From a phage, in the sequence record NC_135731.1: 64,000 nt of DNA; one strand, given 5' to 3'. Of the stretch, positions 1,373 to 41,458 are shown piece by piece. Every line of letters starts with the position of its first letter. Position 1 is the first letter of the stretch. A program made the translations under genes and the position numbers. The notes under the pieces are model-generated. The model was not told the DNA's origin. It was given only the letters and a program-made list of their open reading frames with translations, and made no database searches.

Positions 1373-1430
1373 ATACAGTTCTCCTTAAAGGGGAGGCGGT
1401 TGTACTACCCCTCCCACTCTTGGTTAAACA

Positions 1431-3509
1431 TTAAAAAGGTGTTTCATCGTCTTCAAAACCGGGAACAGGGTCAGAGGACGGATCATCATACGGAAGGTCT
1501 TCTTGTGTGTCAACAGGGTTAACAGTAGGAGTTACAACCTTATCAGCCACAACCCTACCTACAGGTGTTTCTACAACTGCGTGCTCTTGATCCTCAAACA
1601 TAGCTTGAGGTCTCCAAACAACCTCCCCACCTTCTCCGTCTGTGAACATCTGCATTTCTTTGTCCCAGTACCAGTTGCTGGCATCATGGAACTTACCTGT
1701 GTGGGGATCCATAACTAAGGTATCCGCAATGCCTAACGTTTTTGCTGGGCGGTTTTTAAGACCTACCAGTCGGACACGTCCACGGGAACGATCCACCATC
1801 TCTTCTGCCTCCACCCCAACAACTACCCAGCTAAGTTGCTCCAATCCGGCACTACCCCGAAGGTTCTCTTTTCGTACAGGATACCAGAAAGGTAACGGAT
1901 TCCCATCCTTGTCCTTTGGAGGCACAATCTCTGTGCGTTTCAGGTGAGCGATCACCAAGATAAATACATTAAACTGCTTACAGAACGCGGCTAGTTGGGT
2001 CATAGCCATGTCCAGCTCTTTTCGCTCATCCTTAACATTAAGCCCTGAAATTACCATGGACAGGTGATCCAGCACAATATAACGGCAGTGATACAGACAC
2101 ACCATTTGTTTAAGCTTAGTGATCAACTCATCTACAGGAATAGACCCAAAATGCTTGAACACTTTGATTTTTCCCTCCTTGGCCCAAGATTGGTGAATCT
2201 CAGCATGCTCCTGATCAGTCAGGAACTGACTAGGGTCTTCAACAAACTCTTTAACATCAAACCCCAACTGGTTGGCGTATAGAGAGTTAATTGCTTCCTC
2301 AGGGTCCTCTTCAAGGTGAATCAGACACAGGCGATCATCCTCTTCATAATCATCGGCTTTAGGGCATGTAGGATCCATCAAGTATTTTGCAATGCAGTGT
2401 TCTAGTTTCTTGGCTACAGTTGTTTTACCACCGCCAGATGGGCCTGTCAGCATCATCAAGGTGCCTTTGTGAAGTCCTTTCAGCATCTTCTGCAATTTAG
2501 GGAACTCCGCGCTGATATCTACGCCATTAGAAGTCTTCTTACGAAGAGATTCAATGGAGAAGTCTTCTAAATCAGATACAGCATCAGGCACATATTTGAC
2601 TGGGTGACGGAACATGTTGACAATATCTTCCAGCTTTTTAGCCTTCAGCATGTCACGGATATCTTTTACACCGTCAGGGTCGTTTACCTCACTGGGGTAT
2701 TCCACGTGGTAAACGTTATCAGCCATCAAAAATGCCGCGATATTATGTGTGGCTTCAACACCTTTGATAACGTGTTTTTGCTTCTCTACCTCGTTAGCTG
2801 CATCGTTGTCCATTGCAAGGACCACTGTTCCGTAGCTACGGATAAATTTCTCATTGTTTGCAAAAGTATCTACTGCGTTTGCACATCCACAGTTAATTCC
2901 AACAAAAGGCAGGCAGGGTTTTCCTGCCAGATCACTCCCGTTGATAACTGCATCGATCCCGTCCTGGACCTCTTTAGCCCACTGTTTCACCTTTGCCGGG
3001 GCTTTAGCGTTGGTGAGAATCCCTTTTACTTGTATCTGATATGCAGCCTGCCATGCTGCAATAACATCGCCTTCTCCCTCACAAACGTTAATCTGCTTAC
3101 GGTTGTTAGAAGATGCACACAGCTTTTGCCCAAACATTTGGGAGTTAGCCTTTACGATCCCAACCGTCGTAAAGTGCCCACGTTGCTCTTTGGGGATCGT
3201 CCAGTCACGCTTTTTGAAACCGGACAGATTCCCGTAGCGGTCGTAATATGGGAAATATGTTGCAGTAACTGTCACACCGTCTTCTTGGGACAATGCTGAT
3301 CGCACACCAAAATATTGTGCAGCCATTAGACCGATATTTTGTTGTGGTACAGGGACAATTTTAGTATTTTCTAAAACAGTCTCTACAGTTTCAACTTCTT
3401 TTTCATCACGATAGTCTCGTTTCACACTTCCCCCACTTTTATACTTAGTTGCTTTCGGGTTTGGCTCACCGAAACGGTTATATGCAGATGCCATAAATTT
3501 ACTTCCCAT
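1431..3509 (-). CDS. DNA primase/helicase (TOPRIM + DnaB/SF4-like helicase, T7 gp4-like)
   Basis: TOPRIM motifs VCEGEGD and LAMDNDAAN in N-terminal half; Walker A GPSGGGKTT and DnaB-like C-terminal half; lies immediately upstream of the polymerase as in T7 gene 4 then gene 5. No CxxC zinc-ribbon pairs seen at the N-terminus. Confidence 0.8.
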   Translation of the reverse strand: MGSKFMASAYNRFGEPNPKATKYKSGGSVKRDYRDEKEVETVETVLENTKIVPVPQQNIGLMAAQYFGVRSALSQEDGVTVTATYFPYYDRYGNLSGFKKRDWTIPKEQRGHFTTVGIVKANSQMFGQKLCASSNNRKQINVCEGEGDVIAAWQAAYQIQVKGILTNAKAPAKVKQWAKEVQDGIDAVINGSDLAGKPCLPFVGINCGCANAVDTFANNEKFIRSYGTVVLAMDNDAANEVEKQKHVIKGVEATHNIAAFLMADNVYHVEYPSEVNDPDGVKDIRDMLKAKKLEDIVNMFRHPVKYVPDAVSDLEDFSIESLRKKTSNGVDISAEFPKLQKMLKGLHKGTLMMLTGPSGGGKTTVAKKLEHCIAKYLMDPTCPKADDYEEDDRLCLIHLEEDPEEAINSLYANQLGFDVKEFVEDPSQFLTDQEHAEIHQSWAKEGKIKVFKHFGSIPVDELITKLKQMVCLYHCRYIVLDHLSMVISGLNVKDERKELDMAMTQLAAFCKQFNVFILVIAHLKRTEIVPPKDKDGNPLPFWYPVRKENLRGSAGLEQLSWVVVGVEAEEMVDRSRGRVRLVGLKNRPAKTLGIADTLVMDPHTGKFHDASNWYWDKEMQMFTDGEGGEVVWRPQAMFEDQEHAVVETPVGRVVADKVVTPTVNPVDTQEDLPYDDPSSDPVPGFEDDETPF

Positions 3510-4809: not shown

Positions 4810-5205
4810 TTATTCCTGAAAAGCAACGATATCATATGAACTTGCAGACGATCCTAGTGAAGAATGACTCCAATCTAGGTTATCAGAGTAGTCAGCGTAC
4901 TGTGCACCACTACGTAGTTTATATTTTACCCACTTACCTGGTGCAGGGTTTTCACCACCTTCCCATACTACCCAGTCTTCTGGCAGGCCGTCCTGAGGGT
5001 AGTCATCCACCTCACTAATAATCTTAGGGTTTGGCACCAAGAACCATGCAGGCTCTTCCTTCCGGGTAAGTGTCCACACAGCGTAGGTATCTGAGCAGGC
5101 GCATGATAGCAAAGTATATCCACTATTCAGAACTTTTGCAAGCTCTTTTTCAGCATCTCCTAATTTGGTTAAGTGGTATTGGATAATCTTCACACCTGTA
5201 ATCAT
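4810..5205 (-). CDS. hypothetical protein (131 aa)
   Basis: Co-directional ORF, stop adjacent to next start; no recognisable motif. Confidence 0.6.
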   Translation of the reverse strand: MITGVKIIQYHLTKLGDAEKELAKVLNSGYTLLSCACSDTYAVWTLTRKEEPAWFLVPNPKIISEVDDYPQDGLPEDWVVWEGGENPAPGKWVKYKLRSGAQYADYSDNLDWSHSSLGSSASSYDIVAFQE

Positions 5206-5507
5206 CAGAAACCTCCAACTTCTTCAGCAAATGCAGCTGCTGTCGTCGCTGCATCCAGATAGGACTCTAGTTCACGGGCTGCACGTTTGTAAATTGAGTG
5301 GCGCATATCGTTTGGCAGTTGGTGGAAGTCCACCTCTTCACCGTTGTGGTAAACACGCACATCGGTAATTTGTCTAAATCCGTAATAGTCAACATCAGAG
5401 TCACGGCACTCCGAGTCTGGCAACTGGACAACTGCTTGAGCTTCCACAGTAAACATATCGTCAAGTTCGAAATCGATTTCAAAAGTGTATGGTTTATAAC
5501 GTTTCAT
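5205..5507 (-). CDS. hypothetical protein (100 aa)
   Basis: Co-directional ORF; chosen over the overlapping 5267-5482 alternative-frame ORF because it fills the intergenic space and reads protein-like. Confidence 0.55.
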   Translation of the reverse strand: MKRYKPYTFEIDFELDDMFTVEAQAVVQLPDSECRDSDVDYYGFRQITDVRVYHNGEEVDFHQLPNDMRHSIYKRAARELESYLDAATTAAAFAEEVGGF

Positions 5508-5567
5508 CGTTTAGTGCTTCCTTAGTTTTTGTGGGGAGGAGTGCCTCCCCTTTAGACTAACATCTTA

Positions 5568-5909
5568 CTACTGAAGGTCTTCAGAGTCAAGCTCAAAAAG
5601 AATCAAACTGTGCATGCCTGCAGAGAGATCAACGCACCCTGCAATAATAAGGGTCTGATAGTAAGGTTCAGCACCCTCAATGTCTTCGTTAAAATCTACA
5701 ACAAGATAGTCACCTTTGTTAAAGGTGTATTTGTCCGATGTAAACGCAAAACCTGCCCAGTCCCCTACTGCAGGATCTTTATCAGTCACCTTTGTTAGCA
5801 GCAGGTCTTTTTCACGAGATCTTTTAGTAAAATCGTGAATAACAACATCCTTCTCTTCAGGAGTTGGATTGCCACACACGTAGTTAACTATATTTCTCCA
5901 CAAACTCAT
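5568..5909 (-). CDS. hypothetical protein (113 aa)
   Basis: Co-directional ORF whose stop overlaps the helicase start region. Confidence 0.55.
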   Translation of the reverse strand: MSLWRNIVNYVCGNPTPEEKDVVIHDFTKRSREKDLLLTKVTDKDPAVGDWAGFAFTSDKYTFNKGDYLVVDFNEDIEGAEPYYQTLIIAGCVDLSAGMHSLILFELDSEDLQ

Positions 5910-7276
5910 ACGTCCCCCTCTTCTGCTCTGGTTTCAAAATCTTTCCTGACAATTTTGTCTAAGTCAGGGAATGTTGTATTATAAAACTCTACGACTCGCG
6001 GGTCAACAATAATGTCAACTTCTCTTAGTGGACGCAACAAGTTTATTCCTTGTATTGTCTTAACTCGACTCAAAGCAACATACGTCATCCCAGGAGAGAA
6101 AGCTCCGTTCTTTCCAAGGTCTAGGTTGTAACAATCTAGCGTAAGTCCTTGACTTTTATGAGATGTTACGGCGTACCCAGATTTCAGAGGAAGTTGCCTG
6201 TATGATCCAATCACTACCCTCTCTATAAACTTCTCCATCTTCCTTTCTGCAATGTTGTATCTTTGAGATGGCTTATACTCGTTATTCTCCCACAACCTTT
6301 GCTCTATGTCAACCTGTGTTCCATCTTCAAGCTCCACCACCACCGCCTTGTTCTTAAATTTAACAATCGTGGCACGTGTTCCGTTAACATAATAAGGTAC
6401 TTTGTGCGTCGGGTCAACATCGTTGGCGGTTATCATAACCTTCATGCCAATTTTCAACTTCATCTCCTGCTCAACTGGTAGGGTGGAGGGAAACTTACCT
6501 TTCATTTCACCAGTGTATACCTTCTCTGGGGCGTTGATGGCATCATAGAACCTTCTGTTCACTTCCTCCGCTTGTTTGTTGGTGGCGCAAATTGTGAGAG
6601 CGTCTGTTGGTACACCGCCTTTGTAACAGCGAGCATTAAGTTCTGCTACAACCTCTTTTATGCGACGACCCTCACGAACACAGTTGAGCATTGTGGCAAA
6701 TCGAATAGACTCCTGTCGGAACTGATCTACTAGGGCTATGTTGTGGAGGTCAAGCTCTTTCCAAGATTCGGTATAGCAACACAGGTCCGTATGGTAGAAG
6801 TTGAAGTAGGCTTCCTTCTCCATAGAAGAGACAACAGGAGGTGCCTGGTAAAAATCGCCAAACAATATGACCTGTATGCCTCCGAAAGGTTTGTCATTTT
6901 TTCGAAGGAAGCGGAGTTTCCTATCCATCTCTATAAACTTATCAGCACGGATCATGGAGATTTCATCGATAATTAGGATGGTAAATGCCTTGCTTTTCAA
7001 AGGCTTTGCTGTTTTTGCCCTTATTGCGGTCCAGTCTGACTCCATGCTCACACCTGCTGCAAGATCGAAGGTTCGGTGTGCTGTTGCTCCATTAACGTTT
7101 AAAGCGGCCACCCCTGTCGGGGCAACCGTTATGCAAGAGTCTCCATACATTGACTGGATCATGTTGATGAGGTACGTCTTCCCACAACCTGCAGGTCCTG
7201 AGACGAAGACATTCTCACCGCTCATGATTGCAACGAGGGCAGCATCTGTGCCTACATCATACTGCCCTTTTTCCAT
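5906..7276 (-). CDS. SF1B DNA helicase (Dda/RecD/PIF1-like)
   Basis: Walker A GPAGCGKT, Walker B-like IIDEISM, C-terminal TSHKSQGLT and YVALSRV helicase motifs typical of the Dda/RecD family. Confidence 0.8.
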   Translation of the reverse strand: MEKGQYDVGTDAALVAIMSGENVFVSGPAGCGKTYLINMIQSMYGDSCITVAPTGVAALNVNGATAHRTFDLAAGVSMESDWTAIRAKTAKPLKSKAFTILIIDEISMIRADKFIEMDRKLRFLRKNDKPFGGIQVILFGDFYQAPPVVSSMEKEAYFNFYHTDLCCYTESWKELDLHNIALVDQFRQESIRFATMLNCVREGRRIKEVVAELNARCYKGGVPTDALTICATNKQAEEVNRRFYDAINAPEKVYTGEMKGKFPSTLPVEQEMKLKIGMKVMITANDVDPTHKVPYYVNGTRATIVKFKNKAVVVELEDGTQVDIEQRLWENNEYKPSQRYNIAERKMEKFIERVVIGSYRQLPLKSGYAVTSHKSQGLTLDCYNLDLGKNGAFSPGMTYVALSRVKTIQGINLLRPLREVDIIVDPRVVEFYNTTFPDLDKIVRKDFETRAEEGDV

Positions 7277-8517
7277 TACGCCTCCTCGTAAAGAATGTCG
7301 ATAGTGTTACCGTCGCGGTCAACCACGTATTCGATAGGGTCTCCATCTTTGCGTGCTTCCGGAGCTACCACAATCTCATAGCGGCATGCACGGCACTTAG
7401 CGCTATTGTGTTGGTATGGCACACTAACCACATCTGCAGGGTCAACCATAACAGTCATTACAGTGCCGTAGCTCTTTGCATACTCTTTGCTGGCGCAGTG
7501 CAGGCCATAAGAACACGCAGCTTCCGGATCATCTTCTACAAAGTTACGAGGCATGGATACAAAAGCACCCTGGTATTGTGGAACTTTACCGCTGTGCCAA
7601 TCCACCCACTTGCTTCCGTTAAACTGAACCCCCTTATAGCAAATGATTCGACCATCTTCTGCAATCTGGATATCGTTGGCCTGCATAAAATCGTAAAGCA
7701 TGTTTACAGATTTTGCAGATGGATTGCGTAGCAGGCGAACGAGGAATTTCACATAGCGGTCATCCAATGTTCCGTCTGCGTAGTCTTTCTCAATTTTCTT
7801 TGCAATGGTGGATCGCATCTCTACGCCGTAGTAGTAGAGCTTACCATCTTTCATGATCAGGTTGTCTGCAAGTGTAGTGAACTCGTTCTTGCGTTCCAGC
7901 CAGACAAGGATTTCACCAATTGCCTCATCATATTCCTGAACAGAGATATGGTCGAAGACTTTCTGGTAAACTTCCTCACTTTCACTGCGGCGAATTTCAA
8001 AAATACCTTCGTTGCAGGTGATCTGGAGGAGTTCTCCGCAAATAACTACCAAAGGCTCGATGCTTCGAGTCTGTTGCTGAGACACACTGCTCACCACCTC
8101 CAACACCGGATCTTTTACTTCTACTAAAGGTTCTTCTGACTTGATTGCTACCCCAGTGAACCCTACACCGTGAACAACACACAGTGGGTATACCACGCCC
8201 CAACGTTTAACGGAACCTTCGCCTAAATCTAAGATCATGGCGTACTTACCGTTATCTTCCAGACCGTATCGAAATAAACGGGCCTCTTCGCGGGTTTCAA
8301 AATCCTCACGGGTGTAGCAGACGCTGTCACGGTCAGGATCGAACAACTCTGGGGCACCAACTGCCAGTGTCCAGGTTGTGTCGCCTTTCTCAATGGCACA
8401 TGTGAAACCCTTCTTCTCAAGCTCTGCACGGCGGTCGCGTGCTTCTTTACGAGTTTTGAAGTGTTCGTAGATGAAAATCATAACTGTCTCCTTATTTGGT
8501 GTTATTCTTTGTATCAA
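7276..8517 (-). CDS. rIIB: rIIB-like protein
   Basis: C-terminal region (LYDFMQANDIQIAEDGRIICYKGV ... VSMPRNFVEDDPEAACSYGLHCASKEYAKSYG ... DVVSVPYQHNSAKCRACRYEIV) closely follows the recalled T4 rIIB C-terminus; lies directly downstream of the rIIA-like gene as in T4. Confidence 0.7.
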   Translation of the reverse strand: MIQRITPNKETVMIFIYEHFKTRKEARDRRAELEKKGFTCAIEKGDTTWTLAVGAPELFDPDRDSVCYTREDFETREEARLFRYGLEDNGKYAMILDLGEGSVKRWGVVYPLCVVHGVGFTGVAIKSEEPLVEVKDPVLEVVSSVSQQQTRSIEPLVVICGELLQITCNEGIFEIRRSESEEVYQKVFDHISVQEYDEAIGEILVWLERKNEFTTLADNLIMKDGKLYYYGVEMRSTIAKKIEKDYADGTLDDRYVKFLVRLLRNPSAKSVNMLYDFMQANDIQIAEDGRIICYKGVQFNGSKWVDWHSGKVPQYQGAFVSMPRNFVEDDPEAACSYGLHCASKEYAKSYGTVMTVMVDPADVVSVPYQHNSAKCRACRYEIVVAPEARKDGDPIEYVVDRDGNTIDILYEEA

Positions 8518-10474
8518 TCAGCTCACGGTATTCAATCATAGCAGGAGTGTCCCAATATTTCAAGCCTACATGCTTCAAAAGTGGATATTTCTTTTCCAAT
8601 CTTGCAATATAGGCCTTCCCGCACTTGACTCGGTTGGCGATTAAGATTTTGGCACGATGATTTAGCTCACTGTGCTTCCACGCGGTGTTGCCTTCCCACT
8701 TGTGGAAATGTGGCCGATAATTTCCAAAATCTTGCATGGGGATAATTTTCCCTAATTGTTTATACAGGCTGTCATATGAAGTTTCATTTGCTGCGCGAGT
8801 CAGTAAGAATTTCCAAGCGTCCTCTTTCAACAAATGTTCCACATTCTTCTCTGTAACATACTGGCAATCAGGATCAGTCCAAAGCAGACGGGATTCCGAT
8901 ACCAGGTACAGATCTTCCCCTTCAGGAATCTGGAGTGCCGCACGCACGCGGTCATAATCTTGCTGGTAGATGTTACTCAGCTGCCCCAGCCAACAACTTC
9001 CACGTTGGATATCACCCTCATAAGGAATGCAGTGCTTAATCTTCTTGAACTCTGCCTTAGTAATACGTTCACGACGGAAGTAACCATCCTTCTCAAGTTT
9101 TTTAACCCAATAACCTGGCTCATAATGAGTTTTGGTTTCACCTTTCTTCGCAGGTCGGCGTGGAAGCTCAGATAACAATTTGACCGTATCTGCAAAGAAC
9201 GGATGGTGTGCCACCTCTTTAAACTCTTTCACCAGATCCGTGTCCCGGCAATAGAAAACGTTGCGTCCGGTGATCTCGCTTAAGTAGTTACACTTATTTC
9301 GGTTATATTTGCCGTCTCCGTCGTTAAATACAAGGTATACACCTCGTAAGAACTCCGACTTTCCGTAACGAGCATAACCTATGCGGCCTTTATTTAAGCC
9401 GCCAGCGAAAATTTCACAATCGCCTAAGTCGCCAAGCCCTGTTTCTTCCCAACGGTTCCACATAAAGTTTTTGCCGAAGATGTGTCCGAACACTCCACTA
9501 TTCTTCATCATTTCACGTGCTTCTGCGGAGGTTTTTGCCGTCTCCAGTTCTGCAACAACTTCTGCCCCACGAAGACGTATACCTTCTTTGACAAAGGCCT
9601 CCAGGCGATCCTGGAATCCACCGTCGTCATGGCCCTCTATAGTCCATTCACGTCCTGGGTTAATATTGCAATCTCCGATAGGAATTTCCACGCAGATTGC
9701 AGGGTAATCGGTCAATGTCTCCAGGAACTTAGAGCGGTAAGGTTGGTGACCCATCACAACACGGCTCTCGTCTGAGCTGGTATAGCCCTTCAGAATGGTC
9801 ATCTTCCAACCATCCTTCTCGTAATGATACTGTGCCTCAACCTTGTCACCTTCTAACATCTTACTGGTCATGGGATCGGTGACGGTGAACGGAAACTTCG
9901 CATAGCGTAAGCACGATGCAATAGCAGTGCGATATTTCAGTACATGCTCTTTCTTAACATGGAACTGAACTTTTACCCCGTTGTGCTCTTCAGTCTTCCG
10001 CTCGCGGATCTTGGTAACGTTTGGGATACCCTGATCCAAGAACAATAGATATGTGCTTTCAACACCATTATGCACACTGATCACATCGAAAGTGTCCACC
10101 ATGCTGAACGGAGCCTTTGAACCAACACCTTTATTACCTACCAGAGCGTTGCTGTTGCGCTTGGTTGACTCCCCGAGGTTCATAAAAGTGTTGCGGACCA
10201 TCTCTTCTGACATACCCAATCCAACGTCCTGTACAAAGAAGTATGGTTCAAGGTCTGTAGGAGAGTGAATAATGATCGGTACATCCCCCCGTCCAGACTC
10301 AACATGGGAGTCCACGGCATTGAAGATTGGTTCACGGCAGCTTGCCAGCACCTTATCTTCGTAAATCCCTTTAATAATTAGCCCAAAAGTCTCTTTGTTC
10401 AGAGAAATTGAGCCCCTGGTGACCTCCATATTCCCGGTTAGTACCGCTTTAGTTTCATTACTGTTTACGATCAT
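8492..10474 (-). CDS. rIIA: rIIA-like protein with N-terminal GHKL (Bergerat-fold) ATPase domain
   Basis: N-box-like EPIFNAVDSH, G1 box QDVGLGMS, G2 box GNKGVGSKAPFS; the same order and spacing as recalled for the T4 rIIA N-terminus. Start ATG overlaps the upstream hydrolase stop (ATGA). Confidence 0.7.
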   Translation of the reverse strand: MIVNSNETKAVLTGNMEVTRGSISLNKETFGLIIKGIYEDKVLASCREPIFNAVDSHVESGRGDVPIIIHSPTDLEPYFFVQDVGLGMSEEMVRNTFMNLGESTKRNSNALVGNKGVGSKAPFSMVDTFDVISVHNGVESTYLLFLDQGIPNVTKIRERKTEEHNGVKVQFHVKKEHVLKYRTAIASCLRYAKFPFTVTDPMTSKMLEGDKVEAQYHYEKDGWKMTILKGYTSSDESRVVMGHQPYRSKFLETLTDYPAICVEIPIGDCNINPGREWTIEGHDDGGFQDRLEAFVKEGIRLRGAEVVAELETAKTSAEAREMMKNSGVFGHIFGKNFMWNRWEETGLGDLGDCEIFAGGLNKGRIGYARYGKSEFLRGVYLVFNDGDGKYNRNKCNYLSEITGRNVFYCRDTDLVKEFKEVAHHPFFADTVKLLSELPRRPAKKGETKTHYEPGYWVKKLEKDGYFRRERITKAEFKKIKHCIPYEGDIQRGSCWLGQLSNIYQQDYDRVRAALQIPEGEDLYLVSESRLLWTDPDCQYVTEKNVEHLLKEDAWKFLLTRAANETSYDSLYKQLGKIIPMQDFGNYRPHFHKWEGNTAWKHSELNHRAKILIANRVKCGKAYIARLEKKYPLLKHVGLKYWDTPAMIEYRELIDTKNNTK

Positions 10475-10971
10475 TTATTGCGCTCCTTGTAGTAGATATG
10501 GCTCCCGAATTGAGCTGTCCTCTGCATCTTTTTTGCCCATTTCGGTCGTACTTTGGTTGTATGGTAGTGTGTTGCTCCACCTGTTATATCCATAGCCATG
10601 TATGCAACATGGTTGTTATTATAGACCTTTAGAAGCATCTTTGCAAGACTTTTAGCGTGATCCCATGAATCTTTTTCTGTCACCTTAAAAGTTTTGCCGT
10701 GGTTTGTCCACGAAAACTGGTTAGGTTGGTAGACAATCTTTCTTATAGTGTCTGGGTATTTGGGGTGAGATTTCCTGTTTAGGGTGGCAAACCCAGATGC
10801 CAGCATACCCATCGTGCCATCACCTCTAGCTTCCCTGTAGATATTGCATGCTAGAATGTTTTCCTTAGTATCTGATGGCTTGCAAGTATGGTATACTTTT
10901 TGTTTTGGTGCTGCAACAACAGGCAGCGATAAAAATGCGCTCAAAATAATAGCAAAGATCTTAATTTTCAC
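10471..10971 (-). CDS. secreted cell-wall hydrolase, SleB / Hydrolase_2-like
   Basis: N-terminal signal-peptide-like segment MKIKIFAIILSAFLSLPVVAAP, then NIYREARGDGTMGM matching the SleB-family IYxEARGE signature. GTG start with GGAG RBS; terminator hairpin immediately upstream. Confidence 0.7.
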   Translation of the reverse strand: MKIKIFAIILSAFLSLPVVAAPKQKVYHTCKPSDTKENILACNIYREARGDGTMGMLASGFATLNRKSHPKYPDTIRKIVYQPNQFSWTNHGKTFKVTEKDSWDHAKSLAKMLLKVYNNNHVAYMAMDITGGATHYHTTKVRPKWAKKMQRTAQFGSHIYYKERNK

Positions 10972-10980
10972 AATAACTCC

Positions 10981-11007
10981 AAATAGAAAATCCCCGCCGA
11001 AGCGGGG
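10981..11007 (-). terminator. rho-independent terminator between the 126-aa gene and the hydrolase gene
   Basis: CCCCGC-CGAA-GCGGGG hairpin followed on the minus strand by TTTTCTATTT; the hydrolase RBS follows immediately. Confidence 0.65.
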
Positions 11008-11019
11008 TGGTCTTAGAAA

Positions 11020-11400
11020 TTAATCGTAGTGTGCCAAAATCTCTCCATCGTTGCAAGTTCCCTCTACAAAGTTATGAAGATTCATACACTCATCTTGATA
11101 GAAGAATTTACCGCTTTTCAGCCGTAAGCCAAATAACTCAGCATCTCCACGATGGCAAGCCTCTACAAGTTCATAGATTTCATACGGCAACTCTCCGTCG
11201 TCATGGAAGAACCCAGCCTTATCGTTGACATAGATGAAGAAATAATCACTGCTATCGCAAGCGTCCAATATTTTAAACCAGATTTCATCTACATCTTTTT
11301 CTCGGATATCGATCACGCAAGTAGAGCTGCATTCGTACTCCTTCTCCGGCTCCTCGGTCAATACCACCAGGTAGTTTCCCCGCTTACCTACTTTAGCCAT
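11020..11400 (-). CDS. hypothetical protein (126 aa)
   Basis: Co-directional ORF between the AAA+ ATPase gene and a terminator; no recognisable motif. Confidence 0.6.
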   Translation of the reverse strand: MAKVGKRGNYLVVLTEEPEKEYECSSTCVIDIREKDVDEIWFKILDACDSSDYFFIYVNDKAGFFHDDGELPYEIYELVEACHRGDAELFGLRLKSGKFFYQDECMNLHNFVEGTCNDGEILAHYD

Positions 11401-11409
11401 ACAACCTCC

Positions 11410-12594
11410 TTAAGCTTTAGCCAAAATGGCGCTAAACTCTTCACCAAACTCTTTTACAATCTTCATCAGGTTTGGGTATGCTTTGATCAGCTGAGCAACG
11501 ATCTTGTCACGACCTTTACCGATAAGCAAGGCATTTCCTAAGGCATTAGGTTTCATCATCGCCATAAAGACTGAGAATACAAAATCTCGGTTCTCGTCCT
11601 TGAAGTTTTCCCAAAGGAAATCGAGGAAGTTTGCCACACAGCTAACAAGATCTTCGTCGGAGATACTTGCATTTTCCATCATATTACGAATAGCGATACA
11701 ACCTTCAGATCCAAGAATCCACAAGATGTCCGGCTGTTTAGGACCTACGTATTCTTTGCAACCTCCTGCCATAATCCGACCGATTTCCGGTAAGTTGCGT
11801 TTCTTGGTGTGGTAAGTCCAGATCTCTACCGCTGCAGTGTGACCAATAGCACCTTGCAGAAGAACACGGGCCATAGCGTCAGAAATAATACCGCTGTCAA
11901 AATCGTGCAAGATATCAGATGCAGCAACCCAAGATCGTGGTGTGGCAAAAGATGGACAATTAATCTCAGCCATGGCCTCATAATTATCGATAGCTGATGG
12001 AACTCTTTTCAGATATCCAATTACAGAGGAGTGCACCCCATTAAGGAATGCGTAGTCCTCAATAAACACCTCTGCATTGCTTGTAACTTCTACAATGATA
12101 AAACGGTTAGCCAGAGGGGCTTCGAGCGCCGAAAGAACCGCACCATCTGTAGAACGGTTACCAGCAGCCACAAAAACAGAACCCTTAGGGAATGCATAGG
12201 TACCGCACTTGTGGTCGAGCATAATTTGCATTGCCACCTTTTGCAGGTAGTTATCTGCATGAGTGAGCTCATCCAGAAAGATAATTCCGCTCCAGTCAGG
12301 ATCCGCAGGCCAAAATTCTGGAATTGCAAATACTGTACGTGTAGTTCCATCCGCTTCTACAGGGATAGGTAGCCCAGATAAGTCGGCAGGATCTTTATCT
12401 GACAGTCGCACGTCAACCAAGTTGTCATCTCGCTCACCGAACATATTATCGGCAATCTGCTTCATCACCTGGCTCTTTCCCACGCCCATCGGTCCTAAAA
12501 TCAGGACAGATCGGTTATGACGCTGGGCAAACTGAATGATAGCTGGCAACTCACGGACAGTGATTTGACCACTTTCAAATACGTTTCTTGACAT
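11410..12594 (-). CDS. MoxR-class AAA+ ATPase (CobS-like)
   Basis: Walker A ILGPMGVGKS, Walker B IIFLDELTHA, sensor-like VAAGN; single AAA module of about 390 aa as in MoxR/CbbQ/CobS proteins. Confidence 0.75.
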   Translation of the reverse strand: MSRNVFESGQITVRELPAIIQFAQRHNRSVLILGPMGVGKSQVMKQIADNMFGERDDNLVDVRLSDKDPADLSGLPIPVEADGTTRTVFAIPEFWPADPDWSGIIFLDELTHADNYLQKVAMQIMLDHKCGTYAFPKGSVFVAAGNRSTDGAVLSALEAPLANRFIIVEVTSNAEVFIEDYAFLNGVHSSVIGYLKRVPSAIDNYEAMAEINCPSFATPRSWVAASDILHDFDSGIISDAMARVLLQGAIGHTAAVEIWTYHTKKRNLPEIGRIMAGGCKEYVGPKQPDILWILGSEGCIAIRNMMENASISDEDLVSCVANFLDFLWENFKDENRDFVFSVFMAMMKPNALGNALLIGKGRDKIVAQLIKAYPNLMKIVKEFGEEFSAILAKA

Positions 12595-12863
12595 TAGTAA
12601 AAGTCCTCTACTTGTGTGTAAGTGTTTTCAAAGTTTTCCAAAACAGATATCACATCGGATCTGTCAATATCATACGTTACTCTCCAGTTGTACGCAACCC
12701 TTTCTGCTGTTGCCTCTTCTGGCGCTAGTCGTCTGCTGGCATAAAAGAGTGTTGGAGTGCACTTTCTTGCTTGCCCTCTAACTTTCCCATAATAATATCT
12801 GTGAATATCTTTGTCAAAATTTAACTCTTTTTCTGCACGAAGTTCATATTGCTGGTATAACAT
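12594..12863 (-). CDS. hypothetical protein (89 aa)
   Basis: Co-directional ORF abutting the AAA+ ATPase start. Confidence 0.55.
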   Translation of the reverse strand: MLYQQYELRAEKELNFDKDIHRYYYGKVRGQARKCTPTLFYASRRLAPEEATAERVAYNWRVTYDIDRSDVISVLENFENTYTQVEDFY

Positions 12864-12907
12864 CTCTACTACTCCTTAAGCAGCATCCTTGCCGCCATTC
12901 CTGCCCA

Positions 12908-13288
12908 CTAAAATGCAGTCCGAATCCAGACAAGGTTCTTATCTGCCCAATCGTAGAGGCAAGTCATTGCGCTATTAAATTGCTCGCACGGAGGATAATC
13001 TTCTTCCATCTGGCGCATAGCAGAGCCTTGTGGGTAAAGCTCCCGTGCTGCAAACCACGCATCGTAGTCATCCACGGTATCGAAGTAGTATACAACATCC
13101 TCCAACTCAGGATCGAACTTTGAATCATCAGGATCCAGTTGTTCAGGGAACTTGGAGCGTAACTTGCCAGCCACAATGCTTGCCAACTCGCTAACATGCT
13201 TATTGTCCCACTCCACTAGTTTCCCGTCTTCAGTGATGCGTCCTAACCACTGATCATGCAGGTCAATTGTTGTCTTCCACCGGGCCAT
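12908..13288 (-). CDS. hypothetical protein (126 aa)
   Basis: Co-directional ORF; no motif recognised. Confidence 0.6.
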   Translation of the reverse strand: MARWKTTIDLHDQWLGRITEDGKLVEWDNKHVSELASIVAGKLRSKFPEQLDPDDSKFDPELEDVVYYFDTVDDYDAWFAARELYPQGSAMRQMEEDYPPCEQFNSAMTCLYDWADKNLVWIRTAF

Positions 13289-13290
13289 TA

Positions 13291-13548
13291 TCAGTCCACC
13301 TCTTCTTCTCGTTGTAGTTCAAGATACCCGTAGGTCTGGACATCTTGAAGGGTGTGGAACTCCCCATCTGCCGCTAAGGCACGAACAACTTGGCACAAAA
13401 CCTTATGAGGAACTTCATCCAGACCCAGATTCAGTGCAGGAAACACCTTATCTAAGTCAACAAAATAAACAAATTGTAGCTCACCAGCTTCAAAAGGTGT
13501 ATCTTCAATAAACATCTTCTCGGCATTAGTCAAGATCTGCACTTTCAT
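13291..13548 (-). CDS. hypothetical acidic protein (85 aa)
   Basis: Co-directional ORF; acidic C-terminus (LQREEEVD). Confidence 0.55.
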   Translation of the reverse strand: MKVQILTNAEKMFIEDTPFEAGELQFVYFVDLDKVFPALNLGLDEVPHKVLCQVVRALAADGEFHTLQDVQTYGYLELQREEEVD

Positions 13549-13925
13549 TATTCTACCTCCTCTTCTTTTTCTTCGGTATTAGTTTCAGTGCTACCCCACT
13601 CTGGAGTTTCCACCTCGATAGTAAACTCACGTACTACACGGTAATTACCCATGAAGCGCTCCACTTCGTCAAGGCTTACGGAGAAGCCATTGGCAACCAG
13701 GTCTGCAGCACCCTCTTCTACCAGGTAGTCCAGATTGGCTTCCAAAGCTTCAGGCTCAAACCCTGTTAATGCAATCAGATAACCTTCCCCTTCATCAGGG
13801 AGGACAATACATCCCAACTGATTTTCTTTGAAAAGGCAGTGACCATCATTATTGATTGGGTGTTCATTGCAGTAAATAGCTGCACGATAAGTAACTTTAG
13901 ACATCGGTAAGGTCTCCTTAGGCAA
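13548..13925 (-). CDS. hypothetical acidic protein (125 aa)
   Basis: Co-directional ORF with glutamate-rich tail (TEEKEEEVE). Confidence 0.55.
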   Translation of the reverse strand: MPKETLPMSKVTYRAAIYCNEHPINNDGHCLFKENQLGCIVLPDEGEGYLIALTGFEPEALEANLDYLVEEGAADLVANGFSVSLDEVERFMGNYRVVREFTIEVETPEWGSTETNTEEKEEEVE

Positions 13926-14196
13926 TTGTCATTTTACATTCTTGAAATTTTAACACAAGACGGTGATTGTGTCTAGTGTCTAAAAAGATTTTTTCAACCA
14001 TCAGGCACACGGTATAACCGTCCATCTTGTTGACAACAAAATCTCCAGGATGAGGGAGAATGTCTCCCGGATTGGGAAAACATAACCCGCTCAGAAAGGC
14101 ATCATCGGTGGTGGACTTAATGGATTTCCACACACTATCTGCCTGAACATTCTCACCAACATAATATACACTACCACATGACTTCATCATAGTCAA
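13918..14196 (-). CDS. hypothetical protein (92 aa)
   Basis: Co-directional ORF with overlapping stop/start junctions. Confidence 0.5.
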   Translation of the reverse strand: MTMMKSCGSVYYVGENVQADSVWKSIKSTTDDAFLSGLCFPNPGDILPHPGDFVVNKMDGYTVCLMVEKIFLDTRHNHRLVLKFQECKMTIA

Positions 14197-15092
14197 ATCT
14201 CCGCGTAAATTAAACTGGAATCAGTATACTTCTTTAGTGGGTAAATATCCTGTCCATAGATGCAATCATTAAACACCTCATCTACCCAAAGGCTACACTT
14301 ATATCCCATCATTTCTAAAACATCCATCTCTTCTTCGGTAAACTTATCACCGCTCTTGCAAGATGTCAATACCTCATTCTGAACTCTTGCTACCTCGAAG
14401 CGGTTATTGGCAATATCGCTATTGGCGATCAAATACTCACCTAGAGGGTGTGCGGCATTAAAGATGCACAGTGGACGGTTGACGTAATAGTCTCCGGGTG
14501 TATAAAAATTGTTGAGGTCTTTCACTAGAACATTCTTATCAGTCACTTCATTTATAACATCATGCATATCGCACATCTTTATATGTTTGAGGATTCCATC
14601 CCCCATCACAAAATAAAAACTTGCTGAGACACTTTCGGCATAGATCTTACTAGATCCGTTGTAGTTGTATTTTACGCGAATGCTCACTGGGGTTTTTCCT
14701 GTCGCGTTAGCCATCATCCAAAGGAACGGAAGTTCAAACTTCTCTTCTGAGGAAACAAAAGGTGAAGTTGCCAGAGATCTGAAACCTCCAGAAAAGTTGA
14801 AAGTCACAGAACCGCTTCGGCGGTATGATACCGCGTATTCTACTTTTATATCGACATACCCATTGGAATAGGTGTGTCCTTCATTATCTAAATATGTCCA
14901 CTTATCAGACCCAGATACCAATCTACGCTCAATAACCTTCATCACTACAGGAATTAGTGGGTTGGTACAAACCGCTTTTGAAGTAGCTTTATCATCTAAA
15001 GCCTCGTAAATTGCAGAAAGGATGTCCCCAGCTGAAAGATTGGTTGTTATGTCCTGTTTCCACCGCGTACTAAAACTGTTAAGATTTGCCAT
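14193..15092 (-). CDS. hypothetical protein (299 aa), first gene of the leftward early operon
   Basis: Long ORF starting next to the divergent intergenic region 15093-15168; no motif recognised. Confidence 0.65.
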   Translation of the reverse strand: MANLNSFSTRWKQDITTNLSAGDILSAIYEALDDKATSKAVCTNPLIPVVMKVIERRLVSGSDKWTYLDNEGHTYSNGYVDIKVEYAVSYRRSGSVTFNFSGGFRSLATSPFVSSEEKFELPFLWMMANATGKTPVSIRVKYNYNGSSKIYAESVSASFYFVMGDGILKHIKMCDMHDVINEVTDKNVLVKDLNNFYTPGDYYVNRPLCIFNAAHPLGEYLIANSDIANNRFEVARVQNEVLTSCKSGDKFTEEEMDVLEMMGYKCSLWVDEVFNDCIYGQDIYPLKKYTDSSLIYAEI

Positions 15093-15174
15093 AAGTAAGT
15101 GCTCCTATGTTAGTTTTCTTTCGAATGGGTGCACTATATTGTGGAGTTAGAGTAAAGTCAACACGTTTTTGATG

Positions 15175-15203
15175 TTGACATCTGTTGAGACACTTGATAC
15201 GAT
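15175..15203 (+). promoter_or_regulatory. sigma70-type promoter (TTGACA-17 nt-TACGAT)
   Basis: Perfect -35 hexamer 15175-15180, 17-nt spacer, -10 TACGAT 15198-15203, at the head of the plus-strand operon; it overlaps the track ATG at 15169, which argues for the downstream start at 15235. Confidence 0.5.
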
Positions 15204-15234
15204 TTCTTCACTTACAGAGCACGAGAGACGACTC

Positions 15235-16212
15235 ATGAATCTTGAAAAATATTATACACCAGAAGAGTTAGAGCGCTTGCTCAAAAAATATAGACGCAAA
15301 CAGAATAACGCACGGAAACGAGATATAGAGTTCGACCTGTCATGGGAAGAATACCTCCTATTTGGTAAAAAACTTTTAGGAGATGGAGTATGCGACTATA
15401 CCCTTATACCTTTTGACATGCACACAGATGAAAACGGGCTGGGGAATCCTTTCTACCCATCTTTGGAGCGTATAGATGATGAAGGTCCTTACGCAATTGA
15501 CAATTGTTGTGTGGTAGGGTTGAGGTGCAATGCTCTGAAAGACTGTCTGGTAGATAAAAAGACTGCAATCCTGATTAAAGACAAAACTGATCGAAAAATT
15601 GTCCAGCAGATGATGCTCCACCTGAGCGAAGAGCGTATGGAGAAATTGAAAGGTGATTATACTTTTGAAGATTTCATCTTGCAATACGGGACAGAAGAAG
15701 ATAAGCTAGCACTATTTGACGAAGAGGAAGAAGATATGTCACCAATGCAGGACTTTAAAAATTTCATGGCTGATCGTGCAGCCAACAAACACATTTCAGA
15801 CATCGTAAACGAGACTGTGACAGAAGAAGTTGAAGAACAGAACTCTGAAGAGGAAAAAGAGCCTCAGGAGGTCGAAGAGGAGATTTCAGAAGAGGTTCCT
15901 GCACTGCCTGATGATGTTGAGATTGCTAAGGCTTACACTTTCTATTGTCAAACGTTCTACGATGCAGGTATGAAAGTTGATCTGTCGTTCAGCCAATTTA
16001 AGAGTTCGTATATTCGCAAATGCTGTGCTTTAACTGGTGAACGTCTTGGAGCTGGACTTAAACCCCTGTTGGTGACCGACTGGAATAAAGGTTTCACTAA
16101 AGGAAACTTTATGGTAGTATCTCCAATTATGGAGAAAGCTATGACAGACCTTATGAAGACCACTCGCATGACAATGACCGAGTTGGCAGGTATTTTCAAA
16201 CACGTTAAATAA
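15235..16212 (+). CDS. hypothetical protein with an internal tandem duplication (track start 15169 is the alternative)
   Basis: N-terminal segment (FDLSWEEY...GVCDYTLIPFD...AIDNCCVV) is echoed near the C-terminus (VDLSFSQF...CCALTGERL...LLVTDWNKG...FMVVS), separated by an acidic linker. Start chosen downstream of the promoter. Confidence 0.55.
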   Translation: MNLEKYYTPEELERLLKKYRRKQNNARKRDIEFDLSWEEYLLFGKKLLGDGVCDYTLIPFDMHTDENGLGNPFYPSLERIDDEGPYAIDNCCVVGLRCNALKDCLVDKKTAILIKDKTDRKIVQQMMLHLSEERMEKLKGDYTFEDFILQYGTEEDKLALFDEEEEDMSPMQDFKNFMADRAANKHISDIVNETVTEEVEEQNSEEEKEPQEVEEEISEEVPALPDDVEIAKAYTFYCQTFYDAGMKVDLSFSQFKSSYIRKCCALTGERLGAGLKPLLVTDWNKGFTKGNFMVVSPIMEKAMTDLMKTTRMTMTELAGIFKHVK

Positions 16213-17985: not shown

Positions 17986-18248
17986 TGGCTACTAGCATTG
18001 TATTCAATTCTAAGGTGAAGAACAAAAAGCGTGCAGACAGTTTTCCGTGTGGGACCGTGGTAAGTTGCGACGGAGACGGCATTCAAAACATAGTTATGAT
18101 TGTCAAAACAGGAGAACATTGTGTGTGGGGTTTCGATTTAGAAAATAATGAGTTGTACGATCTGCCGCCAAACATGAAAGTTACAGAGCTTGACACCAAA
18201 ATTACCATCCTTGGAGAGACAAGCTATTCAAAAGAAGGAGGAGAATAA
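17985..18248 (+). CDS. small paralog family protein 2 of 4 (87 aa)
   Basis: TAATG stop-start overlap with paralog 1; FPCGTVV ... WGFDL ... ELDTKITILGE. Confidence 0.65.
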   Translation: MATSIVFNSKVKNKKRADSFPCGTVVSCDGDGIQNIVMIVKTGEHCVWGFDLENNELYDLPPNMKVTELDTKITILGETSYSKEGGE

Positions 18249-18511
18249 TGACCACAAAAATCACTATCGCAGAACCGAAAGCCAACACTCAACCTATCGA
18301 AAAGTTTAAGTGCGGTGAGGTGGTAACATTCACACCAGATAATGAAGATGCTAAGATTTTCGCAATGGTCACAGCTGAGTGGATGTGCGACAACACCACA
18401 CAAGTGCTACGTTTCGATACCTACCTCACAGATGAGATCCGAAACGATAAGATCGTGACAGGTGTGGACACTGAAATTATTTTCTACAAGAGCTTTTTAG
18501 AGGGTTTCTGA
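18248..18511 (+). CDS. small paralog family protein 3 of 4 (87 aa)
   Basis: TAATG overlap with paralog 2; FKCGEVV ... LRFDTYL ... GVDTEIIFY. Confidence 0.6.
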   Translation: MTTKITIAEPKANTQPIEKFKCGEVVTFTPDNEDAKIFAMVTAEWMCDNTTQVLRFDTYLTDEIRNDKIVTGVDTEIIFYKSFLEGF

Positions 18512-41021: not shown

Positions 41022-41458
41022 TAATACCTCCAGACATCAACAACGATAGAATCTTTCATGTCGAACATAAAGACCCCTTTATCACCTTTCGCCCAAATCT
41101 GGTTGTTCCAGAACACACCAGCGGTGAGCCCGTTCAGACCCTCGAAGATAACAATATCGCCACGCTGAACCTGTTTAGGAGTATCTAGTCGAGTCATAAA
41201 GAGATCAAAAATAGTAGGTAGGTGTGTGGTTTTGAAACGGAGCATGCACCATCTTTTGCTTTCCAACTCTGTTTTATACGTTCCTTCGAAGTTAGAAAGA
41301 AAATCTGTTCCGTATTGGGCATCAACACACTTGGCTGCAAAGGTGCAACAATCGTGGAATCCCCATTCAAAAGGTATGGTGGCCTCTTCGTCAAACACTT
41401 TCCACAATCTTTCTTGCCAATCTACTAAACGAGGATGTGTGCTCATTAAACCTCCCAA
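41021..41458 (-). CDS. putative tail-tip assembly protein (145 aa)
   Basis: One of three short genes directly upstream of the gpJ-like gene, a position occupied in lambda by tip-assembly genes; contains a Cys motif FHDCCTF; assignment is positional only. Confidence 0.3.
   Translation of the reverse strand: MGGLMSTHPRLVDWQERLWKVFDEEATIPFEWGFHDCCTFAAKCVDAQYGTDFLSNFEGTYKTELESKRWCMLRFKTTHLPTIFDLFMTRLDTPKQVQRGDIVIFEGLNGLTAGVFWNNQIWAKGDKGVFMFDMKDSIVVDVWRY

Follow-up and report, generated by a model that had tools for sequence, protein, structure and literature searches.

A predicted exported SleB-type hydrolase encoded beside rIIA and rIIB in an rV5-like phage is probably a low-dose accessory

The hydrolase–rIIA–rIIB block in the 64,000-nucleotide stretch of phage DNA analysed here (sequence record NC_135731.1; the window) is the already published gene 2/gene 1/gene 238 block of rV5-like coliphages. 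We think it probable that gene 2 of this block encodes an exported accessory hydrolase made at low dose, that the phage has a separate lysis enzyme, and that the overlap between the hydrolase gene and rIIA is plain compaction. The gene order can be read directly from the DNA and from earlier annotations; the export of the hydrolase, its enzymatic activity, its low dose and its physiological role are what we infer.

Results

The block follows the Vequintavirus gene order

The hydrolase gene and its neighbours all lie on the minus strand of the window:

11410..12594, minus strand: MoxR-type AAA ATPase, upstream neighbour in the same leftward unit
11020..11400, minus strand: conserved hypothetical protein of 126 residues (rV5 gene 3; phrog_12370), the last gene before the terminator
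10471..10971, minus strand: SleB/CwlJ-family (Hydrolase_2) cell-wall hydrolase of 166 residues with a GTG start (ORF, Pfam, PHROGs)
8492..10474, minus strand: rIIA homolog of 660 residues, its start overlapping the hydrolase stop (ATGA; ORF, Pfam, PHROGs)
7276..8481, minus strand: rIIB homolog, 401 residues from the ATG at 8481 (ORF, PHROGs)
5906..7276, minus strand: PIF1/Dda-like helicase, its start overlapping the rIIB stop (TAATG; ORF, Pfam, PHROGs)

The preliminary description of this DNA had reported an ATGA overlap between the hydrolase gene and rIIA, with rIIB next, and we confirm both: the junction reads ...AAT AAA TGA, with the rIIA ATG inside it. The gap between rIIA and rIIB is 10 nucleotides long and carries AAGGAG upstream of the rIIB ATG. 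A TTG at 8517 would be an alternative start giving an rIIB of 413 residues, against 401 from the ATG at 8481 that related annotations use. The rIIA homolog matches phrog_612 over residues 1–657 (E 2e-124, PHROGs) and has an N-terminal GHKL-type ATPase domain (HATPase_c_3, 34.9 bits against a Pfam cutoff of 25), and rIIB, encoded directly after it, matches phrog_609 over residues 144–387 (E 1e-61, PHROGs).

The same description did not regard the arrangement as standard. By sequence comparison, however, hydrolase, rIIA, rIIB is the standard gene order throughout Vequintavirus, and it was tabulated for rV5 in 2013 with the same 4-bp overlap (Table S3: rIIA at 1..1983, cell wall hydrolase at 1980..2480). 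The Escherichia phage phiWec196, a Vequintavirus, is 100% identical to the window, and at least 85 phage records match 80% or more of the block with an identity of 90% or higher. In rV5, phiWec196, Bas51 WalterGehring and Bas54 MaxBurger the genes, their order, their lengths (166, 660 and 401 residues), the overlap and the terminator t003 are as in the window, and the DNA of the block is 96–100% identical to its Vequintavirus orthologs. rV5 and WalterGehring differ in having a 1.3-kb gene for an N6-adenine methyltransferase further downstream, which the window lacks. Overlaps are also common nearby, at 7 of the 19 same-strand junctions of neighbouring genes in the homologous annotated stretch, so the hydrolase/rIIA overlap alone carries little information.

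The hydrolase joins a signal-peptide-like N-terminus to a SleB-type catalytic domain

Against Pfam Hydrolase_2 (PF07486) the hydrolase scores 70.4 bits (cutoff 27; E 2e-19), the match covering profile positions 2–100 of 100 and spanning hydrolase residues 51–161. It aligns with the homologous catalytic domains of the Bacillus spore-cortex lytic enzyme SleB (4F55 and 4FET) as YREARGD against YGESRGE, and the glutamate aligned to the SleB GE motif, E47, is invariant among six divergent phage homologs. We take the GE-motif glutamate to be catalytic, following structural work on SleB. Cys30 and Cys42 are kept in five of the six homologs. In contrast to Bacillus SleB, the hydrolase has neither an N-terminal peptidoglycan-binding domain nor a YpeB-type partner; a Pfam search found no second domain in it, and 166 residues leave no room for a binding domain at the N-terminus. 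Because the phage host has no muramic-delta-lactam cortex, the predicted substrate would have to be ordinary Gram-negative peptidoglycan. The single-sequence AlphaFold2 model of the hydrolase has a mean pLDDT of 47, too low to bear on its fold.

The N-terminus reads MKIKIFAIILSAFLSLPVVA/AP (the slash marks the putative cleavage point), with two lysines, a 12-residue window with a Kyte–Doolittle mean of 2.71 and a V-x-A site. Judged by a basic n-region, a hydrophobic h-region and small residues at −3 and −1, it divides into MKIK, then IFAIILSAFLSLPVVA, then V-V-A/A.

10912..10971, minus strand: signal-peptide-like stretch of the hydrolase, residues 1–20 (N-terminus inspection, Kyte–Doolittle)

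A hydrophobic N-terminus is present in all six divergent homologs, and a signal peptide has been reported for the homolog in the Certrevirus phage CB7. The signal peptide proposed in the preliminary description thus holds up as a signal-peptide-like segment that is basic, hydrophobic, ends in V-x-A and is kept in homologs. It does not resemble the N-terminal domain of a SAR endolysin, as its h-region is strongly hydrophobic, with many Ile, Leu and Phe residues, and leads into the V-x-A site. The product of gene 2 is, on these predictions, a small basic peptidoglycan hydrolase with nothing but a catalytic domain behind what looks like a cleavable Sec signal peptide, and it would probably be exported by Sec to cut or remodel periplasmic peptidoglycan as a dispensable accessory.

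A wall-degrading enzyme of this kind might instead travel in the virion and help penetrate the wall at infection; virion lysins are common, and this phage group has several wall-degrading proteins. We regard this as very improbable for the hydrolase. A Sec-type signal peptide would export the protein from the cytoplasm, where virions assemble, and none of five hydrolase peptide strings occurs in the rV5 virion mass-spectrometry table. Furthermore, the baseplate cluster has lysozyme and hydrolase genes of its own, and the gene considered here lies in the replication region, not in the structural region. The rV5 table does contain two weak non-tryptic peptides of rIIA, which we regard as noise.

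A terminator abuts the hydrolase ribosome-binding site

Directly upstream of the hydrolase gene lies a hairpin of the following kind:

10982..11007, minus strand: intrinsic terminator, CCCCGC-UUCG-GCGGGG then AUUUUCUAUUU, identical to rV5 t003 (−16 kcal/mol)

The terminator runs straight into the ribosome-binding site of the hydrolase, whose GTG start has GGAG 6 nucleotides upstream. The same fusion of terminator and ribosome-binding site stands before the hydrolase gene in Mydovirus and Seunavirus, where the stems are unrelated in sequence, and the start codon of the hydrolase is GTG or TTG in 5 of 7 lineages examined versus 2 of 26 neighbouring genes. A terminator abutting the hydrolase ribosome-binding site in three genera, together with a usual GTG or TTG start, appears to be undescribed before now. 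This combination suggests deliberately low expression: since transcripts must pass a strong terminator at the ribosome-binding site, and translation must begin at GTG, read-through would probably yield the hydrolase in small amounts. The toxicity reported for a Certrevirus homolog expressed in E. coli is in keeping with a low dose, and it is also the one indirect pointer to peptidoglycan cleavage. In the RNA structure computed for the terminator region, part of the Shine–Dalgarno sequence is paired as well (z = −2.25), a result on which we do not rely. The conserved design of terminator plus weak start offers a handle for dosage experiments.

The block probably belongs to a long leftward unit

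A consensus scan found a divergent promoter pair upstream of the block:

15133..15161, minus strand: sigma-70-like promoter TTGACT-17-TATAGT (10/12), leftward half of the divergent pair
15175..15203, plus strand: partner promoter of the pair

The leftward promoter is the likely start of a long unit containing the block and is equivalent to rV5 P010, which is the sole promoter predicted for rV5 genes 10 to 1 (Table S4) and, together with t003, the only element predicted in that stretch. The P010 string itself is absent from the window at up to 3 mismatches, and the site was found by its consensus instead. No credible terminator was found inside the hydrolase–rIIA–rIIB block in a terminator scan; this, the ATGA overlap, the 10-nucleotide gap with AAGGAG and the TAATG overlap fit one transcript, and we infer co-transcription of the three genes. 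The unit runs on into the helicase, so they do not form a closed operon. In the mechanism we propose, a long leftward unit, not of the late type, would begin near 15150 at the sigma-70-type promoter of the divergent pair, pass in succession through hydrolase, rIIA and rIIB, and reach on into the genes for helicase, primase and polymerase.

The window contains 19 matches to the late-type motif TGGTAAAATA where 5.7 would be expected, an enrichment; none of them falls between 4932 and 15362, and the timing of the hydrolase would be early or middle rather than late. A further sigma-70-like match (10/12) lies inside the hydrolase gene at 10646..10618, from which rIIA could have its own transcript; this match, or an unrecognised phage promoter, could alter our estimates of read-through, dose and timing.

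Lysis genes lie elsewhere and the hydrolase is dispensable in Bas54

In a related genome the annotated endolysin has a lambda-R-like sequence and adjoins the ligase gene, the i- and o-spanins adjoin terL, and a holin candidate is also annotated elsewhere. The search for holin and spanin genes suggested in the preliminary description thus located spanins, an endolysin and a holin candidate in that genome; none of these genes lies inside the window, where the hydrolase is flanked by the hypothetical gene, rIIA, rIIB and the helicase. A classical cassette of adjacent holin, endolysin and spanins was not found, the lysis genes of these phages being dispersed.

Published transposon sequencing of Bas54 (HIDEN-SEQ), which covered rich-medium growth on K-12 and on one clinical isolate (CFE311), bears directly on function, as the Bas54 hydrolase is 98.8% identical to that of the window. 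Insertions were recovered at 32 of the 36 TA sites of the hydrolase gene, 90 of 101 in rIIA and 56 of 59 in rIIB, all three being classed as non-essential. The lambda-R-like endolysin and the spanins took zero insertions; the annotated ‘putative holin’ did take them. Between K-12 and CFE311, hydrolase insertions showed no significant depletion (log2FC −0.88, adjusted p 1.0). Two neighbours of the hydrolase, MoxR and the helicase, were conditionally required on a clinical isolate, and the MoxR ortholog was reported as needed against a predicted defence system, DS-28.

The hydrolase is thus probably a dispensable accessory and not the phage's lysis enzyme, and terminal lysis would be the work of the separate lambda-R-like endolysin and the spanins. 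On other hosts or media the hydrolase may still have a role tied to particular conditions, and rII could share in it. The preliminary description had also raised a signal-peptide endolysin placed outside a lysis cassette. Its location stands, the gene being encoded away from the lysis genes, but its dispensability in Bas54 speaks against the function; lysis genes elsewhere and a hydrolase that is not required are most of what that description had itself named as refuting it.

Hydrolase homologs are often found away from rII genes

No rII genes are adjacent to the hydrolase in Certrevirus, Phapecoctavirus, VivaForever, T5-like phages, Nankokuvirus, Cr30 or a Vibrio phage. T4 rIIA, for its part, is not known to have a hydrolase gene directly upstream. 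In Seunavirus and Mydovirus a small gene for a protein with two transmembrane domains (2-TMD) and a basic C-terminus lies between the hydrolase gene and rIIA, and in Certrevirus a 2-TMD protein gene lies downstream of the hydrolase gene, its product having been proposed as a class II holin. The 2-TMD proteins of the three genera are 51–62 residues long. The sole match to a 2-TMD relative in the window, at 18118..18273, was rejected, being at chance level, on the non-coding strand and without an ORF. Three genera share the gene order of hydrolase, then (small membrane gene), then rIIA and rIIB, while their hydrolases have only about 50% identity; this would fit weak selection for linkage, though the genomes are broadly collinear anyway.

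The explanation we favour would treat the ATGA overlap as ordinary gene compaction in an inherited order, with no dedicated coupling of hydrolase and rII; it possibly arose once the small two-transmembrane gene, which still separates the pair in sister genera, was lost. The functional link between hydrolase and rII envisaged in the preliminary description is not borne out, given the variable gene order, the common overlaps and the dispensability of each gene in Bas54. rIIA and rIIB form an rII module; such modules are widespread, and in other phages they are documented as countering abortive infection of the RexAB type. The rII modules of T4, MM02, EdH4, SUSP1 and N4 counter lambda RexAB, which acts through membrane depolarisation. 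They share with the window a homologous pair in A-then-B order and are dispensable without Rex, but no muralytic gene beside rII is described for those phages in the sources examined. Anti-Rex activity of the Vequintavirus rII pair was not found in the literature examined.

Signal-peptide (secretory) and SAR endolysins resemble the predicted hydrolase in placing a muralytic enzyme in the periplasm without a holin hole, and they turn lytic on collapse of the proton-motive force. The exported hydrolase could by analogy be a second endolysin held until that collapse, with rIIA and rIIB guarding against premature depolarisation or lysis and the 2-TMD protein as a pinholin-like trigger. The signal-peptide-like N-terminus of all homologs fits this, as do the position of the 2-TMD gene (directly downstream in Seunavirus and Mydovirus, downstream in Certrevirus) and the action of rII modules against a membrane depolariser. 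The insertions tolerated by the Bas54 ‘putative holin’ would place the real lysis trigger with another gene, and the Certrevirus hydrolase homolog was reported to be toxic on expression in E. coli. However, secretory and SAR endolysins are their phages' lysis enzymes, whereas the hydrolase is dispensable beside an indispensable cytoplasmic endolysin; many lineages have the hydrolase without adjacent rII genes, Vequintavirus is without the small membrane gene, and the hydrolase gene sits in a non-late unit with no late motif. We therefore consider a second endolysin unlikely, and return to the accessory role.

In 11 sampled lineages the homologs have genes of replication or of early type around them, for helicase, primase, exonuclease or ligase, and annotated holin and endolysin genes do not adjoin them. 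The SleB-like enzymes of Certrevirus (CB7_83 and CR3_087), T5-like phages (‘SleB’), PAK_P3 (gp151) and the phAPEC8 group have, like the hydrolase, a signal-peptide-like N-terminus and a Hydrolase_2 domain, and are encoded among such genes apart from the main endolysin; they differ in having no rII genes beside them and, in some cases, in having a promoter of their own or a gene for a small membrane protein downstream. A sigma-70-like promoter lies directly upstream of the hydrolase gene in Phapecoctavirus-type phages. A 2013 report noted a similarity of rV5 gene 3 to T5.083, and we considered whether gene 3 and the hydrolase form a conserved pair in T5-like phages. We rejected this pairing: gene 3 does not resemble the gene that precedes the hydrolase in T5-like phages, and it had no homologs outside Vequintavirus at E 1e-3.

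Discussion

A sharper form of the accessory role, which we put forward tentatively, would make the hydrolase an early periplasmic peptidoglycan-remodelling factor, acting at low dose and unrelated to lysis. Possible purposes are the release or recycling of wall precursors, the conditioning of non-growing cells, the hindering of superinfecting phages and the countering of envelope-linked defence. The early-type neighbourhoods of the homologs and the Phapecoctavirus-type promoter point this way, and the PAK_P3 homolog has been proposed as an auxiliary metabolic gene behind the accumulation of cell-wall precursors in infection. The conditional requirement for MoxR and the helicase in Bas54 is also consistent with it, but hydrolase insertions themselves were not significantly depleted on the clinical isolate, and the early timing is a prediction.

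With similar reserve, we suggest that SleB-like enzymes could be a widespread class of low-dose, non-late, Sec-exported and condition-specific remodellers that large virulent phages of several unrelated groups (Vequintavirinae, the phAPEC8 group, T5-like phages and Nankokuvirus) keep beside the endolysin. Their expression would be held down by the fusion of terminator and ribosome-binding site and by weak start codons, their roles would lie, for example, in non-growing hosts, superinfection or envelope-linked defence, and they may act together with functions that serve membrane integrity, for instance rII or the small 2-TMD protein.

Since this layout is already published for a well-sampled phage genus, the hydrolase–rII arrangement is of little consequence in itself. 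Of wider interest is the second secreted SleB-type hydrolase that many large virulent phages, from T5-like to rV5-like, encode beside the endolysin, dispensable in the laboratory yet conserved.

Databases often label the hydrolase gene ‘endolysin’. For the Vequintavirus hydrolase this is, on the evidence of the published transposon data, a misleading name, and the label affects the mining of endolysins as antimicrobials.

The gene block and its precedents

Four closely packed genes occupy the minus strand of the window from 5906 to 10971:

10971..10471, minus: hydrolase, 166 aa, GTG start, GGAG 6 nt upstream
10474..8492, minus: rIIA, 660 aa, PHROG 612 'RIIA' (E 2e-124), N-terminal HATPase_c_3 domain
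8481..7276, minus: rIIB, 401 aa from the ATG at 8481, PHROG 609 'RIIB' (E 1e-61)
7276..5906, minus: PIF1/Dda-like helicase, 456 aa

The hydrolase stop and rIIA start share ATGA, 10 nt separate the rIIA stop from the rIIB start, which is preceded by AAGGAG, and the rIIB stop overlaps the helicase start in TAATG. The reading frames, family matches and junction sequences bear out the preliminary description of an ATGA overlap between hydrolase and rIIA, followed by rIIB. Overlaps are routine (7 of 19 same-strand junctions in a homologous annotated stretch), and the ATGA is therefore weakly informative.

The 3.7-kb block matches Escherichia phage phiWec196 at 100% identity and dozens of Vequintavirus genomes at 96-97%, and in 85 records one single match spans at least 80% of it. 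The matching records annotate cell wall hydrolase (or SleB, or 'endolysin'), rIIA, rIIB and helicase. The 2013 rV5 paper places rIIA (gene 1) at 1..1983 and a cell wall hydrolase (gene 2) at 1980..2480, with rIIB (401 aa) as gene 238; rV5 genes 1 and 2 overlap by 4 bp, as in the window. The preliminary description did not regard the arrangement as standard; the 85 records and the rV5 gene table show that it is the published standard layout of Vequintavirus and was already known.

Lysis genes and dispensability

In the relative Bas51 (WalterGehring), the annotated endolysin adjoins the ligase gene, the i-spanin and o-spanin adjoin terL, a holin candidate occupies a separate site, and a lysozyme and a further hydrolase belong to the baseplate cluster. 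The Bas51 endolysin resembles the lambda R transglycosylase in sequence. In rV5, gp89 is a Pfam Phage_lysozyme. The lysis genes sought elsewhere by the preliminary description are found in Bas51 as an endolysin, spanins and a holin candidate, all away from the block, but they are dispersed and form no single cassette. The sole member of this Bas51 set of lysis and wall enzymes within the window is the baseplate hydrolase:

41024..41446, minus: 141-aa 'cell wall hydrolase protein' in a baseplate/tail-fibre cluster, 100% identical to bas51_0030 and unrelated to the block hydrolase

On the clinical isolate CFE311, Bas54 conditionally requires the ortholog of this gene and the tail-fibre genes next to it.

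Bas54 was subjected to saturated transposon mutagenesis in the HIDEN-SEQ preprint. The Bas54 coordinates agree with those of phage MaxBurger, and the MaxBurger hydrolase shares 98.8% identity with that of the window. Insertions were recovered at 32 of 36 TA sites in the hydrolase gene (bas54_0065), 90 of 101 in rIIA (bas54_0066) and 56 of 59 in rIIB (bas54_0067), all non-essential in that preprint, which reports zero insertion reads in the endolysin (bas54_0202), i-spanin (bas54_0001) and o-spanin (bas54_0002) genes and tolerated insertions in the annotated 'putative holin'. On CFE311 the hydrolase and rII genes showed no significant depletion. The Bas54 MoxR ATPase and PIF1/Dda-like helicase, dispensable on K-12, were strongly depleted on CFE311 (log2FC -7.23 and -6.32); their genes lie at 11410-12594 (-) and 5906-7276 (-) in the window, and MoxR is reported to be needed against the predicted defence system DS-28. 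Host-specific accessory functions may be common in the neighbourhood of the block.

The hydrolase protein

The hydrolase scores 70.4 bits with Pfam Hydrolase_2 (PF07486), for which the cutoff is 27. Bacillus SleB catalytic domains (PDB 4F55, 4FET) align with it, YGESRGE under YREARGD, and the SleB GE-motif glutamate is therefore present, as E47. An alignment of the window protein with its counterparts in five further phage lineages, at 41-53% identity, shows E47 unchanged in all six sequences, and each N-terminus has one or two basic residues followed by a hydrophobic stretch, closed by a small-x-small site in the five Vequintavirinae and related sequences. The window N-terminus reads MKIK-IFAIILSAFLSLPVVA/AP (Kyte-Doolittle mean 2.71). 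Five of the six sequences retain Cys30 and Cys42, which would fit a periplasmic disulfide. The Certrevirus homolog CB7_83 was reported in the CB7 paper to have a signal peptide and to be toxic upon expression in E. coli. Unlike true SleB, which has a peptidoglycan-binding domain, the 166-aa phage protein is too short to hold one. Single-sequence structure prediction was of too low quality for use. Hydrolase peptides were not found in the rV5 virion peptide data.

Transcription and expression level

The leftward unit that holds the block probably starts at a divergent promoter pair, the counterpart of rV5 P010 and P011:

15161..15133, minus: sigma-70-like promoter
15175..15203, plus: sigma-70-like promoter

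This pair parts the leftward replication-gene unit from a rightward unit headed by an Srd-like anti-sigma factor gene, and the GC skew changes sign there. A strong intrinsic terminator, CCCCGC-UUCG-GCGGGG-AUUUUCUAUUU (rV5 t003), stands between the upstream gene (11400..11020) and the hydrolase. Its U-tract merges directly into the hydrolase GGAG, leaving an interval too short for any promoter, and the next predicted promoter in rV5 after t003 lies only far downstream. The motif TGGTAAAATA, the putative late promoter of rV5, which resembles the T4 late consensus, has 19 matches in the window at up to one mismatch (5.7 expected), confined to the structural region (23900-63200) and nearly all on the minus strand; a motif scan found none in 4932..15362. 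We infer that the hydrolase and downstream genes would be expressed ahead of the late genes, through terminator read-through. A sigma-70-like match within the hydrolase gene (10646..10618) could feed rIIA separately.

The same architecture with stems unrelated to that of the window precedes the hydrolase of Mydovirus AV124 (AGCCCC-AUUAU-GGGGCU-UUUUAAUUU-GGAG-TTG start) and of Seunavirus SPLA5a and EC152 (AGCCCC...GGGGCU-UUUUAAUUU-GGAG-TTG start). In Certrevirus the hairpin is weaker and the start codon is ATG. The TTG start returns in the phAPEC8 group and VivaForever (L010:3895-3985 and L008:4915-5005, records of this type), where a hairpin, a sigma-70-like promoter (TTGCAA-17-TATACT or TACAAT) and AGGAGG precede it in that order, and the hydrolase gene heads its own host-polymerase transcription unit. 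Five of the seven lineages examined start the hydrolase with GTG or TTG, against only 2 of 26 neighbouring genes in a related annotated stretch, one of the two being the hydrolase itself. The terminator-RBS architecture and these starts, with the reported toxicity of CB7_83, suggest selection for a small hydrolase dose. This point was not encountered in the papers reviewed.

Association with rII across phages

Seunavirus and Mydovirus encode, between hydrolase and rIIA, a protein of 51-57 aa that has two hydrophobic segments and is basic at its C-terminus. The gene is present in 61 records, often without annotation:

L005:5536-5691: small membrane ORF of AV124
L006 ~5536-5706: small membrane ORF of SPLA5a (record 97711..97881)
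L011:4536-4709: small membrane ORF of EC152

Its product could serve the hydrolase as a holin- or pinholin-like partner; the window (Vequintavirus) holds no trace of the gene. Certrevirus has the order hydrolase, 62-aa two-segment membrane protein, 61-aa protein and helicase, with no rII genes; the CB7 paper agrees and proposes the 62-aa protein as a class II holin. The hydrolase also lies amid replication-type genes, with no adjacent rII, in the phAPEC8 group, VivaForever, a T5-like phage, Nankokuvirus CHA_P1, Caulobacter phage Cr30 and a Vibrio phage. The simplest history would be an ancestral order hydrolase, small membrane gene, rIIA, rIIB, helicase, with later loss of the small gene in Vequintavirus and of rII in Certrevirus.

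On this comparative evidence the hydrolase would not be tied to rII. The functional link once proposed between them is mostly unsupported, as adjacency varies by lineage, overlaps are common and each gene is dispensable in Bas54. A link by way of membrane energisation, with an exported hydrolase set free by depolarisation and rII guarding against this, has no positive evidence and would be an unlikely one. A CRISPRi-ART study found divergent rII modules dispensable without Rex and required against lambda RexAB.

Role of the hydrolase

The evidence best supports a dispensable peptidoglycan hydrolase of the periplasm that is probably made in small doses and probably exported by Sec; lysis depends on other genes. 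The enzyme, a conserved accessory with unusual expression controls, would be exported by Sec and act on peptidoglycan in the periplasm at low dose, within a block belonging to a long non-late transcription unit, and the rII counter-defence pair would be adjacent by descent. A non-lytic peptidoglycan remodelling factor is also plausible; a remodelling role has been put forward for the PAK_P3 homolog as the reason why wall precursors accumulate. In T5-like Salmonella phages a SleB-type 'second endolysin' is encoded far away from the holin gene, its role left open by the authors.

Related records

WalterGehring (L001:4905-6230) and rV5 (gene 235) carry a gene for a putative N6-adenine methyltransferase of 441 aa that is missing from the window, where tblastn gave no match and the flanks meet at ~5504-5512. 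Sixteen GenBank 'Campylobacter phage' records (MG0656xx, host Campylobacter jejuni, unannotated) share ~96% identity with E. coli Vequintavirus genomes across the block, and appear to be coliphage assemblies that were mislabelled or came from contamination.
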